Shown in pieces: positions 35,335 to 38,159 of a stretch of DNA of 47,972 nucleotides. The position numbers were made by a program, and so were the translations under genes. Origin of the DNA: Rhodobiaceae bacterium (GTDB lineage Bacteria; Pseudomonadota; Alphaproteobacteria; MED-G09); assembly GCA_002723035.1 (NCBI GenBank), contig PBNH01000010.1, forward strand, positions 4,720 through 52,691, in the 5' to 3' direction. A model generated the notes under the pieces. It saw nothing but the letters and a program-made list of their open reading frames with translations. It searched no databases and was not told where the DNA came from. Positions within the stretch are counted from its first letter, which is position 1. Each line of letters starts with the position of its first letter.

Positions 35335-35496
35335 ATTTAAACAACATTATTCTGATTAATAGTTATATTATTAAAATCTCAAAAAAAGAAATCTTAGTTT
35401 TTTATATAACTTATAAAATTCTTATAACAAAACTTTAAAATTCAGTAATAAGCATATTTTATTTGCAATTTATAAAAATTAGTCTTATGTATCAAA

Positions 35497-35587
35497 CTAC
35501 ATTTTGAGAGGGAGTAATCCCTGCCAACCTGCAATAACCTGCGAAGGTGGTAACTTTAATGTGGCTTATTAGGCAAAAAAAGGTTTT
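35497..35587 (+). ncRNA. SAM-I/IV-type riboswitch aptamer
   Basis: P1 ACAUU/AAUGU (35499-503/35558-62); J1/2 UUGAG; P2 AGGGA-GUAA-UCCCU; P3 GCC-AA-CCU/AGG-U-GGU with the AA/U internal loop; no P4; P5 GCUU-AUU-AGGC; pseudoknot between L3 AACCU (35536-40) and AGGUU (35581-85). Confidence 0.82.
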
Positions 35588-35632
35588 TTCTCTCATTTGT
35601 AAATATAGTTAAGTTTAGCTTCCTAAAGAAGC

Positions 35633-35690
35633 TGGGTATTTGATTTTCAGATTGTGCACCCTAGATTTCCTTAAAGCACTAAAGAGAGGA
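35633..35690 (+). ncRNA. SAM-V riboswitch overlapping the ompW RBS
   Basis: GGGU-A-UUUGA...UUGUGC-ACCC...UAAAGCACUAAA-GAGAGG; P1 GGGU/ACCC, pseudoknot GUGC (35654-57)/GCAC (35676-79); SD 5 nt before the ATG. Confidence 0.88.
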
Positions 35691-35694
35691 AAAA

Positions 35695-36366
35695 ATGAAA
35701 AAACAATTTTTTAAAAAAACCCTATCACTATTATCATCTTTGGTATTAGTTTTATTTATTTCTTTAACTCCGCTAAGCGTAATATCTCAAGAAGTAACTG
35801 CATTTAAAAGTGCTGGAAAATGGCTAGTCGGTCTTAAAGTTTTAAATTTAGATCCTGATGAAAAATCAGTAACTTCAATTGGCGGCGAAGCAAAAGTTGA
35901 TGATGATACTGTGCCAGAACTAGATATTAGATATTTTTTAACTGACAATATTGCTATCGAAGCAATTTTTGGGACCACTGAACATAGTGTAAAGGCTATT
36001 GGAACAGCTCTTGGGGATGTTAATTTAGGTACAGTAAAAGTTTTACCGCCTACATTTACTCTTCAATATCATTTCAATAGTGAAAGTAGATTCTTACCAT
36101 ATATTGGTGCTGGAATAAATTATACCTTTTTCTACGATGATAACCCTGGTGACGCGGTAGGTATTAGCTACAAGGATGAGGTTGGTTTTGCACTAAATGT
36201 AGGTTTTGACTATATTATTAATGAAAATAACTATTTTAATATAGATATCAAAAAATATAAGCTTTCAACTGACACAGTAATTGATGCTGGGCCAGCTGGT
36301 ATTGCTACTGCATCAGTAGACCTAGACCCAATAGCAGTAAGTATTGGCTATGGGTGGAGATTTTAA
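35695..36366 (+). CDS. ompW: OmpW-family outer membrane beta-barrel
   Basis: Signal peptide, PELDIRYFLTDNIAIE, VLPPTFTLQYHF, PYIGAGINYTFF, C-terminal GYGWRF. Confidence 0.92.
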   Translation: MKKQFFKKTLSLLSSLVLVLFISLTPLSVISQEVTAFKSAGKWLVGLKVLNLDPDEKSVTSIGGEAKVDDDTVPELDIRYFLTDNIAIEAIFGTTEHSVKAIGTALGDVNLGTVKVLPPTFTLQYHFNSESRFLPYIGAGINYTFFYDDNPGDAVGISYKDEVGFALNVGFDYIINENNYFNIDIKKYKLSTDTVIDAGPAGIATASVDLDPIAVSIGYGWRF

Positions 36367-36420
36367 AGAATTAATTAAATATTAATTCTAATATTTCTAA
36401 TAAGAGGTTATCTTATTGCT

Positions 36421-37554
36421 ATGAATACTGATCAAAATAAGCTTCCATGTTCATACTTTAGAGATACTAAACCTCTTTTACTAGAGAATGGAACAACTAT
36501 AGATGAGCTTACTGTAGCCTATGAAAGCTATGGTAAGCTCAATCAAGATAAATCAAATGCAATAATAATTTGTCATGCCCTTTCTGGCGATCAGTTTTTA
36601 GCGAGTAAAAATCCTTTAACTAATAAAGATGGTTGGTGGAATAGGATGGTTGGTAGTGGAAAACCAATCGACACTGATAAATATTTTGTGATTTGTGCAA
36701 ATGTTCTTGGTGGCTGCCTAGGATCTACCGGACCTACCTCGATAAATCCATCTACCGGCGAAGAGTACGGACTAAATTTTCCAGTTATAACTATTTCCGA
36801 CATGGTTAATGCACAAATGAGACTAATTCAGTACTTAGAAATTGATAAACTCTTATCAGTTATTGGAGGGTCAATGGGTGGAATGCAAGTTCTTGAGTGG
36901 GCGGCTTCTTATCCATCTAGTATTCTCTCTGCGATTCCAATTGCCACCTCTTCTAGGCATACAGCGCAAAATATTGCATTTCATGAACTTGGGAGACAAG
37001 CTATAATGGCTGATCCAGATTGGAGCGGTGGTAACTATATAAAAGTTGGCACTAATCCTAACAAAGGATTGTCAATTGCAAGAATGACAGCTCATGTTAC
37101 TTATTTATCAGAGGCTTCTCTTACGAAAAAATTTGGAAGAAGACTTCAAGATAAAGAAGAAATAAGCTTTGGATTTGATGCTGATTTTCAAATCGAAAGT
37201 TATTTAAGGCATCAAGGGCTAACATTTGTGGATAGATTTGATGCCAACTCTTATCTTTATATTACAAGAGCTATGGATTATTTTGATTTAGAAAAAACTC
37301 ATAAAAAAAGTTTAACAGAAATTTTTGAAAATACTGATATTAAGTTCCTAATAGCATCATTTACTGGAGATTGGCTGTATCCACCATCTGAAAATTTAAT
37401 GATTGTTAGGGCATTAAGTGCAGGAGGAGCTGATGTTAGTTTTGTTAATATTGAGTCTGACAAAGGTCATGATGCTTTTCTTTTAGAAGAGCCAGAATTT
37501 GACGATGCAATGAGAGGGTTTATTAATTCAATTTCTATAGAGGCGAAAATATAA
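36421..37554 (+). CDS. metX: Homoserine O-acetyltransferase
   Basis: CHALSGD, NVLGGCLGS, GGSMGGM, RFDAN, GHDAFL. Confidence 0.95.
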   Translation: MNTDQNKLPCSYFRDTKPLLLENGTTIDELTVAYESYGKLNQDKSNAIIICHALSGDQFLASKNPLTNKDGWWNRMVGSGKPIDTDKYFVICANVLGGCLGSTGPTSINPSTGEEYGLNFPVITISDMVNAQMRLIQYLEIDKLLSVIGGSMGGMQVLEWAASYPSSILSAIPIATSSRHTAQNIAFHELGRQAIMADPDWSGGNYIKVGTNPNKGLSIARMTAHVTYLSEASLTKKFGRRLQDKEEISFGFDADFQIESYLRHQGLTFVDRFDANSYLYITRAMDYFDLEKTHKKSLTEIFENTDIKFLIASFTGDWLYPPSENLMIVRALSAGGADVSFVNIESDKGHDAFLLEEPEFDDAMRGFINSISIEAKI

Positions 37555-38159
37555 TGAATAACAATAGAGCTGATCTTGAATTAATAACATCTCTCGTAGA
37601 CGAAAGGACAAGAATCCTTGATGTTGGTTGTGGAAATGGAGAGTTATTACAATCCTTAAAAGATAAAAAAAGTATCAAAGGTCAAGGTCTTGAGCTTAAA
37701 CAAGAAAGAGTTAATCAATGCGTTTCAAGAGGTTTATCAGCAATTCAAGGAAATGCTGATAGCGACCTCAGCCTCTATCCAAATCAATCATTTGATTGCG
37801 TAATTTTAAGCCAAACAATTCAAGCAACTAGTAACCCAAAAAATATTTTAATCGAATTAGTTAGAATTGGTAAAAAAGCAATTGTCTCAATACCAAATTT
37901 TGGCTTTTGGAAAGTAAGATTTGGCTTTGCTGCTCATGGCAAAATGCCTATTACAAAGAAACTTTCAAATAATTGGTATGATACTCCAAATATTCACTTG
38001 TGTAGTATACTAGATTTTGTTGATTTATGTAAGATCCTGAATATTAAAATTGAAAAAACAATTGTTCTTTCATCAAATAAAACCAAATCATTTAATGGTT
38101 ATCCTAATAATTGGTCAAATCTTTTTGGAGAAGAAGCAATTTTTTTGATAAAAAGTTAA
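37554..38159 (+). CDS. metW: Methionine biosynthesis protein MetW
   Basis: LDVGCGNG, ILSQTIQ, SIPNFGFW, WYDTPNIHLC. Confidence 0.94.
   Translation: MNNNRADLELITSLVDERTRILDVGCGNGELLQSLKDKKSIKGQGLELKQERVNQCVSRGLSAIQGNADSDLSLYPNQSFDCVILSQTIQATSNPKNILIELVRIGKKAIVSIPNFGFWKVRFGFAAHGKMPITKKLSNNWYDTPNIHLCSILDFVDLCKILNIKIEKTIVLSSNKTKSFNGYPNNWSNLFGEEAIFLIKS

Follow-up and report, generated by a model that had tools for sequence, protein, structure and literature searches.

A SAM-I/IV and a SAM-V riboswitch in one leader ahead of an OmpW-family, metX-like and metW operon, conserved in a marine alphaproteobacterial family

The window analyzed here is a whole stretch of 47,972 nt from a Rhodobiaceae bacterium, a marine alphaproteobacterium of the PS1/OCS116 clade (assembly of 971,642 bases, 61% complete). 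Rfam cmscan over the whole window at gathering thresholds (GA), with clan competition applied, returned four elements: two tRNAs and two S-adenosylmethionine (SAM) riboswitches, SAM-I-IV (RF01725) and SAM_V (RF01826). The two riboswitches lie one after the other in the leader of an operon encoding an OmpW-family outer-membrane protein, a MetX-like enzyme and MetW. This tandem is real and conserved, and it places two structurally unrelated SAM aptamers in one leader. The original prediction had named both elements from the letters alone, and each covariance model matched above GA where that prediction had placed its element. Positions below are those of the window, and the SAM-V helices were mapped from the crystal-structure description of the metY SAM-V in the relevant passages of PMC6061858.

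35494-35590, + strand: SAM-I/IV aptamer (RF01725, 59.0 bits against a GA of 41.1, E 2.7e-07, model positions 1-99 of 99)
35499-35503 with 35558-35562, + strand: SAM-I/IV P1, ACAUU with AAUGU, A-U pairs included
35508-35522, + strand: SAM-I/IV P2, GGGA/UCCC with a GUAA cap (GNRA loop)
35523-35551, + strand: SAM-I/IV P3, with an AA/U internal loop and GCC/GGU at its base
35564-35574, + strand: SAM-I/IV P5
35536-35539 with 35582-35585, + strand: SAM-I/IV pseudoknot, P3-loop AACC with 3'-tail GGUU
35625-35692, + strand: SAM-V aptamer (core 35634-35689; RF01826, 44.1 bits against a GA of 41, E 5.9e-04, model positions 1-66 of 66)
35634-35637 with 35658-35661, + strand: SAM-V P1, GGGU with ACCC
35638-35644, + strand: third strand of the predicted SAM-V triplex, AUUUGAU
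35646-35648 with 35684-35686, + strand: SAM-V P2a, UUC with GAG
35652-35657 with 35676-35682, + strand: SAM-V P2, UUGUGC with GCAC(U)AA
35662-35672, + strand: SAM-V P3
35684-35689, + strand: Shine-Dalgarno (SD) site GAGAGG, 1 nt after P2 and 5 nt ahead of the ATG at 35695-35697
35695-36366, + strand: OmpW-family outer-membrane protein, first gene of the operon, 223 aa (PF03922, E 8.1e-47)
36421-37554, + strand: MetX-like homoserine O-acetyltransferase, 377 aa (PF00561, alpha/beta-hydrolase fold, E 3.1e-21)
37554-38159, + strand: MetW, 201 aa (PF07021, E 1.6e-74)

The upstream element is a SAM-I/IV riboswitch by covariance model and by covariation, and is predicted to bind SAM. The RF01725 match survived competition inside the SAM-I clan (CL00012), and every part of the pattern that had been claimed was present: P1 with A-U pairs, a GNRA-capped P2, P3 with its AA/U loop and GCC/GGU, P5 and the pseudoknot. 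P2 consists of a G.U pair and a one-base bulge followed by GGGA/UCCC, without an internal loop; the P2 internal loop (kink-turn) of SAM-I and SAM-IV is absent from SAM-I/IV (PMC2864571). In an alignment of 26 related leaders, 25 of them distinct, 94.2% of cells were paired in the fold including the pseudoknot, compared with 35-40% when the partners were slid by 1-3 columns. Seven pairs were altered on both sides (41 cells), and the covariation score was reached by none of 500 shuffles; because the leaders are interrelated, as are the SAM-V sequences below, shuffle counts overstate the significance of the covariation. Compensatory changes were located in P1, P2, P5 and the pseudoknot, and the binding core was invariant. 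P1 was 99.2% paired, with AU (13), GC (9) or GU (3) as the closing pair, P2 98.2%, P3 99.1% and mostly invariant, and P5 96.6%, with one pair read as UA in 15 leaders and CG in 9. The pseudoknot was compensatory at two pairs (CG 16/AU 6/UG 3 and GC 10/CG 6/UA 3); its overall pairing of 75% reflects an outermost pair that mostly fails.

Based on the model and on the pseudoknot layout, the downstream element is a SAM-V riboswitch, for which SAM binding is likewise predicted. No overlapping SAM_alpha or SAM-II match was returned by Rfam on the PS1 leaders at E up to 0.1. In alignment A3 (29 sequences, 21 distinct, three outgroups included), 97.0% of cells were paired, against 36-62% when slid. 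P2 was 100% paired and invariant across the 21 distinct sequences, as expected for a ligand-binding triplex, and P1 was 100% paired with compensatory CG and AU variants in the outgroups. Compensatory change was also seen at two pairs of P3 (AU 16/GC 5 and GC 20/CG 1), and P2a was 100% paired. AUUUGA at 35638-35643 was invariant in 29 of 29 sequences, the triplex itself being predicted, and the SAM contacts of PDB 6FZ0 (UUGUGC, GCACUAA with its bulged U, and AUUUGA) are all invariant here. The aptamer reaches the GAGAGG site, as had been proposed, and this site was invariant in 26 of 26 PS1-family leaders. By analogy with the published metY SAM-V model, as set out in the passages of PMC6061858 that describe it, SAM-V would hide GAGAGG from the ribosome.

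The same passages (PDB 6FZ0; Huang and Lilley 2018, PMC6061858) describe in metY SAM-V the features found here: an H-type pseudoknot with a 4-bp P1 and a U-rich third strand; a P2 of UUGUGC/GCAC(U)AA whose bulged U pairs with the SAM adenine; and a P3 hairpin and AAA stretch, followed by the SD and a short P2a. The present P1 is GGGU/ACCC rather than the AGGU/ACCU of a Pelagibacter-like example, and, unlike in metY SAM-V, P2a can be 3 bp and a 5' hairpin overlaps P1. The turn UUUCAGA and the SD GAGAGG are common to SAM-II/V-like elements of other Alphaproteobacteria. Standalone SAM-V elements also occur in genus g1 (L101-L106, in G001, G004, G005, G007 and G008), where P1 is AGGU/ACCU, the 5' hairpin is lacking and a promoter-like region immediately precedes the element. 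Five of the six precede a frame of at least 238-274 aa, open at the end of the DNA, that begins MTTLNLTANDD... and contains GGxGxD-like repeats; L101 differs.

The SAM-V P1 strand begins 48 nt after the SAM-I/IV pseudoknot strand (about 45 nt had been predicted), and the Rfam matches are 34 nt apart. Only spurious frames of 21-34 aa were found in the leader, with no real gene between the aptamers. The relatives set comprised 61 genomes, the window's own and 60 others, with 24 genomes in the window's family (f1, the marine PS1/OCS116 family). SAM-I/IV was matched in 25 of the 61 (22 of the 24 PS1-family genomes, plus one each in two other families), and SAM-V in 22 at E up to 0.01, 17 of these over GA and all 22 in the PS1 family. 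At least one tandem was present in 22 of the 24 PS1-family relatives, spread over three genera; the two exceptions are 67-68% complete. Rfam scans of the 29 loci around SAM-I/IV matches placed SAM-V on the same strand in 21, with 28-56 nt between the matches; at L004 SAM-V scored 33.6 bits, and at L026, L027 and L030 a plain SAM-V sequence is present although Rfam did not report it. The tandem total is 25 of 29, and the order of the two elements is fixed. The four loci without a tandem lie in other families (L006, L022) or are single SAM-I/IV elements of genus g1 (L029, L031). In metagenomes, an exact 24-base pattern of the SAM-V core gave 48 loci, 40 of which carry both SAM-I/IV core motifs at most 260 nt upstream, so that the predicted arrangement recurs well beyond the window.

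A second tandem leader, found in genus g3 and in G018, precedes a 382-aa FA_desaturase-family membrane protein. Such loci (L026 222-1600, L027, L028 and L030; metagenome L143 and L145) have an extra linker hairpin and a 13-14 bp version of the alternative helix described below, and the gene (AlkB-like, with histidine boxes) is an unexpected target for SAM control. The Rfam SAM-V model run on 151 Alphaproteobacteria genomes gave two matches, both in f1; since 31 candidates per genome were scored, absence of SAM-V elsewhere does not follow from this count. A pattern search of 401 genomes gave six matches, three beyond f1 (G388, G192 and G410). A SAM riboswitch at GA was found in 0 of 20 loci of OmpW homologues beyond the PS1 family and the SAR92-like bacteria considered below (Thalassospira, Nisaea and others).

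Tandem riboswitches for one ligand serve as models for the sharpening or staging of a genetic response by RNA alone, and to our knowledge SAM-II/SAM-V is the one pair of different classes that has been well studied. The main text of a survey of RefSeq 80 and environmental sequences (Sherlock et al. 2022, PMC9481103) lists 149 SAM-II/SAM-V tandems, seven of SAM-II then SAM-I/IV and two of SAM-I/IV then SAM-II. SAM-I/IV followed by SAM-V is missing from that main-text list. The main text of the paper describing SAM-I/IV variants does not mention tandems (Weinberg et al. 2010, PMC2864571), and full-text literature searches, mostly judged by title and abstract, gave no paper on the pair. As far as searched, the SAM-I/IV to SAM-V combination is new, and so are its PS1-family conservation and probable platform. 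The proposal of an undescribed cross-clan tandem held for this particular combination; as a claim to the first cross-clan tandem it was too strong, since SAM-II and SAM-I/IV tandems are already in print (main text of PMC9481103). Those tandems likewise join a SAM-I-clan aptamer to a SAM-II-type pseudoknot across clans, and differ in that the partner is called SAM-II rather than SAM-V. The two published SAM-I/IV to SAM-II cases may be related to this locus and have been scored with a different model, organisms and sequences being absent from the text of that paper.

According to the passages of PMC9481103 and PMC11508383 that describe it, the SAM-II/SAM-V tandem shares several features with the present leader: two classes for one ligand in one 5' untranslated region, a second aptamer that is SAM-V and ends in the SD site, a setting in marine streamlined Alphaproteobacteria with sulfur or methionine genes downstream, and a linker structure that can out-compete the first aptamer. 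Here the SD GAGAGG lies within or directly after SAM-V P2/P2a, as judged at the sequence level only. Unlike in SAM-II/SAM-V, the first aptamer is a SAM-I/IV multi-helix junction fold and not a SAM-II pseudoknot, no canonical terminator with an overlapping antiterminator was found after it, and the operon starts with an OmpW-family gene.

Three further features bear on how the leader is transcribed and how it might act.

35463-35491, + strand: candidate promoter, -35-like TTGCAA (35463-35468), a 17-nt spacer and weak -10-like TATGTA (35486-35491)
35584-35601, + strand: pyrimidine-rich linker strand UUUUUUCUCUCAUUUGUA, complementary to the aptamer-1 5' strand and to the SD region
35613-35637, + strand: hairpin GUUUAGCUUCC-UAAAG-AAGCUGGGU, abutting SAM-V and terminator-like by scan

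A TTGC[AT][AT] hexamer stands at a fixed distance 5' of P1 in related leaders of all three genera, which would put the transcription start near 35498, at the base of SAM-I/IV P1. The consensus promoter scan did not flag the TTGCAA/TATGTA site, and for this reason it is put forward as a candidate promoter only. RNA evidence came from Logan contigs of marine RNA libraries, which represent related strains at 90-99% identity, do not resolve transcript starts, ends or levels, and are uninformative on uncovered stretches. Contigs covered 35520-35798 (X4, record 25), 35574-37466 (X3) and 35575-35703 (X1), so that X4 runs from inside SAM-I/IV into ompW, and the contigs bridge the linker, SAM-V and ompW. 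Because such contigs may include DNA and cannot prove a single transcript, they lend weak support to one mRNA. The leader could alternatively give separate transcripts, with a linker promoter starting the ompW mRNA at SAM-V and SAM-I/IV left as a separate short RNA. SAR92-like gammaproteobacteria (HTCC2207, Pseudomonadales) bear on this point: they carry a near-identical cassette of hairpin, SAM-V and OmpW without SAM-I/IV and without metX/metW, a unit that works without the upstream aptamer, so that in that lineage transcription can start just 5' of the hairpin. In the window, no sigma-70-like or other promoter-like site was found by scan on the + strand across 35494-35694, the conserved -35-like hexamer sits 5' of SAM-I/IV instead, and contig X4 joins aptamer 1 to ompW. 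We consider separate transcripts very improbable. With SAM-I-clan and SAM-II/V-type matches by Rfam, no gene or promoter-like site between them and bridging contigs, the notion of two unrelated folds in one leader was borne out.

The linker strand UUUUUUCUCUCAUUUGUA is complementary to two segments of the leader. One is the SAM-I/IV 5' strand at 35498-35515 (the 5' strand of P1, J1/2 and the 5' strand of P2), which is SD-like and reads GAGAGGGA (also given as ...ACAUUUUGAGAGGGAGU); the other is the SD region GAGAGGAAAAAA at 35684-35695. Pairing with the former gives an alternative helix of -13.5 to -15.9 kcal/mol in the window, where it is present in the minimum free energy (MFE) structure, and of -10 to -18 kcal/mol in genera g1 and g3. 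By inspection it occurs in the MFE structure of 14 of 23 leaders, and it is altered on both strands between lineages (GAGAG/CUCUC, UUGAG/CUCAA, AAGAAA/UUUCUU). Relative to shuffled linkers, the alternative helix had a z of -2 or lower in 25 of 50 distinct leaders, reaching down to -5.3, with the observed energy attained by 0 of 300 shuffles. Pairing with the latter segment, termed the anti-SD duplex, amounts to -13.1 kcal/mol in the window (z -5.6 or -3.4), and z was -2 or lower in 23 of the 50. At least one of the two tests was passed by 33 of the 50 distinct leaders and both by 15. Folding of 11 leaders with the aptamer-1 region blocked gave, in 10 of them including the window, an MFE structure in which the linker strand pairs with the SD or the start region.

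We tentatively favor, at somewhat less than even confidence, a reading in which both aptamers are functional in series on one ompW-metX-metW transcript, repress at high SAM and act on one ribosome-binding site rather than at two distinct levels. SAM bound to SAM-V would close the P2 triplex and the short P2a (UUC/GAG), hiding GAGAGG from the ribosome. Without SAM, the SAM-I/IV 5' strand GAGAGGGA would pair with the pyrimidine strand that immediately follows the aptamer; bound SAM would lock it in the aptamer and free the pyrimidine strand to pair with GAGAGGAAAAAA about 100 nt downstream, in a long-range helix that would enclose the hairpin and SAM-V. The SAM-I/IV part of this mechanism is less certain than the SAM-V part. 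It is possible, if rather doubtful, that the strand released by SAM-bound SAM-I/IV pairs with the very SD occluded by SAM-V, in a helix closing the hairpin/SAM-V domain, so that unlike aptamers share one expression platform. Were that so, folding of one aptamer could favor the other, which would be true and not pseudo-cooperativity. Sharpened SAM control from the tandem is a reasonable inference.

Single SAM-I/IV riboswitches (RF01725) share with this leader P1, a P2 without internal loop, P3, P5 and the pseudoknot from P3 loop to 3' tail. By inspection they also have a strand 3' of the aptamer that complements both the 5' part of the aptamer and a downstream purine segment, which lies directly downstream as an SD-like GGAGGG (L006, L095) or as the 3' strand of a terminator (L029, L031). 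Folds of these single leaders show only the pairing of that strand with the downstream segment. In the present leader no purine segment other than the SD is complementary, and that site lies about 100 nt off, beyond a second aptamer.

Alternatively, SAM-V alone might regulate, with SAM-I/IV folding without an expression platform as a relic, a SAM buffer or a stabilizing 5' structure, and with the alternative pairings arising by chance in an AU-rich leader. In 17 of the 50 distinct leaders neither the alternative helix nor the anti-SD duplex beats shuffles, and in the Pelagibacter SAM-II/SAM-V tandem the first aptamer was unresponsive to SAM in full-length RNA in vitro (PMC11508383). SAM-I/IV is nevertheless kept in three genera with compensatory P1, P2, P5 and pseudoknot and an invariant core, and ahead of two operons, ompW-metXW and the desaturase-family gene; many leaders have a very strong alternative helix, as the z values and shuffles above show; and a relic is unlikely to persist in genomes of about 1.3 Mb. 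A leader regulated by SAM-V alone is thus quite improbable.

Several observations weigh against the favored reading of two sensors acting on one ribosome-binding site. For both aptamers, SAM binding and regulation are predictions from sequence. The SAM-V score is marginal, at 3 bits above GA, and falls below GA in the relatives L004, L007, L008, L024, L025 and L028 (33.6-40.6 bits). In most genus g2 leaders the alternative helix is indistinguishable from shuffles. Anti-SD z was above -2 in 27 of the 50 distinct leaders, about half; the g3 ompW leaders L007 and L024 gave values close to 0, and of the six distinct desaturase leaders four (L026-L028 and L030) fell at about -1.2 to -1.8, with L145, the sixth, at -2.23. 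Since the linker must match the GAGAGG-like J1/2-P2 segment anyway, its complementarity to the SD may simply follow from that. The first GAG of the SD is contested between P2a and the long-range helix, and, if translation of ompW alone is repressed, control of metX and metW is not obvious. Finally, the hairpin together with UAUUUGAUUUU passes the terminator-like scan (2 such sites in the region, where 0.4 would be expected), and it is lacking from the standalone SAM-V leaders found in the same genus, which keeps a termination role possible.

The last two points lead to a bi-mechanism explanation, in which SAM-I/IV would terminate transcription at the hairpin (35613-35637) and its U-rich tail UAUUUGAUUUU, and SAM-V would control translation of the read-through transcript. 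The hairpin stem is altered on both strands among relatives (AGCUUC/GAAGCU, GGCUCUC/GAGCU, GGCUUA/UAAGCC, CUGGCC/GGCUGG), and this covariation, taken with its absence from standalone SAM-V leaders, favors a tandem-related function similar to that in SAM-II/SAM-V. Published SAM-II/SAM-V tandems carry a terminator after the first aptamer (described in passages of PMC9481103 and PMC11508383), as does a SAM-II/SAM-V-like leader of G192, and attenuation would cover metX and metW as well as ompW. On the other side, no antiterminator overlapping the hairpin was found in aptamer 1 or the linker, neither of which overlaps or complements the hairpin 5' strand, and the alternative helix stops 8-20 nt ahead of the hairpin. 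With energies of -4.8 to -11.6 kcal/mol among relatives, the stem is weak. The last four bases of its 3' strand, GGGU, double as the SAM-V P1 5' strand, and the interrupted "U-tract" that follows is the invariant, U-rich third strand of the SAM-V triplex. The SAR92-like hairpin has no aptamer upstream, and so cannot be a SAM-I/IV-regulated terminator there.

Single SAM-I/IV riboswitches of the same genus provide a further contrast. At L029 (1501-1660) and L031 of genus g1 (G004:C5 and G008:C2), a longer SAM-I/IV (121-122 nt, 49-51 bits) is followed by a strong canonical terminator, GGCUCUUACGA...UCGUAGGGGC with a U7 tail, ahead of a small open reading frame (ORF; MNKKN...), which indicates that the clade does use classical intrinsic terminators. 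Among candidates tried and set aside was a relay antiterminator, in which the hairpin 5' strand would pair with P5 or with the P1 3' strand; of 23 leaders, 20 gave a z of +0.7 to -1.6 and just 3 a z of about -2 or lower. MFE folding was uninformative as a test of hairpin regulation, as bona fide single SAM-I/IV terminators form alike whether the aptamer is blocked or free. A leader peptide was likewise rejected: the 21-aa frame beginning within the P1 3' strand lacks conservation, and by inspection its L010 version stops after seven codons. Given the missing antiterminator, the weak stem, the identity of the U-tract with the SAM-V strand and the SAR92-like hairpin without SAM-I/IV, we rank two sensors on one SD above termination combined with translational control, which we regard as unlikely. 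The suggestion of two-tier control, understood as transcription plus translation, lost ground accordingly, with no antiterminator for the hairpin and with the hairpin also standing free of SAM-I/IV in the SAR92-like lineage.

The locus adds a pair of aptamers without a common fold, conserved across an abundant marine clade and ahead of two operons, and the 50 distinct leaders offer natural variation helpful for dissecting the mechanism. Unlike aptamers on one platform would be a new architecture, should both sensors indeed target a single ribosome-binding site. The cassette appears modular, as the hairpin, SAM-V and OmpW unit stands alone in SAR92-like gammaproteobacteria. Its presence in two classes suggests that the SAM-V-OmpW cassette is mobile or ancient and that the porin has a SAM-related role; an OmpW-family channel linked to SAM sensing in two unrelated marine lineages hints at a part in acquiring methionine or reduced sulfur. 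The SAR92-like loci are L051 (2380-2510) and L052 (2320-2450), with L113, L118, L124, L131, L137, L144, L151 and L153 from metagenomes. Their OmpW proteins are 63-73% identical to that of the window, and Rfam at GA missed their SAM-V copies.

As to the operon itself, the OmpW-family protein has a signal-peptide-like N-terminus, the metW start overlaps the metX stop, and a divergent class I/II aminotransferase gene lies upstream of the leader. No terminator-like site was found by scan on the + strand from ompW to metW, and ompW-metX-metW synteny was kept in 19 of 19 PS1-family loci with sufficient downstream DNA. The second gene is presumably metX, a name based on its pairing with MetW, the Pfam match supporting an alpha/beta-hydrolase fold only. 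The window's own genome also contains a standalone SAM-II (SAM_alpha, 56.2 bits) at G000:C25:10918-10998 (L032 1501-1581), which precedes a 430-aa enzyme of Cys/Met metabolism (pyridoxal phosphate-dependent type, MetY/MetZ-like). Together with SAM-I/IV and SAM-V, three SAM riboswitch classes are therefore used in this small genome.

Two of the pattern matches beyond the PS1 family showed related arrangements. At L095 (1480-2220, minus strand), from the GC-rich alphaproteobacterium G388, a SAM-I/IV of 76 bits is followed by a CCCUCC/GGAGGG hairpin and an ORF of about 150 aa, after which a SAM-V-like element (P1 CGGC/GCCG, UUCAG turn, GAGAGG SD), unreported by Rfam at E up to 0.05, stands ahead of an SNF2-like helicase gene; both classes thus occur in one operon with a gene between them. 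At L099 (1340-1535, minus strand), from G192, a SAM-II-like element (28.5 bits) is followed by a terminator (GUCGCC...GGCGGC with U6), a small hairpin and a SAM-V-like element (34.9 bits), both scores being below the Rfam cut-offs; this is a SAM-II/SAM-V-type tandem outside Pelagibacter.

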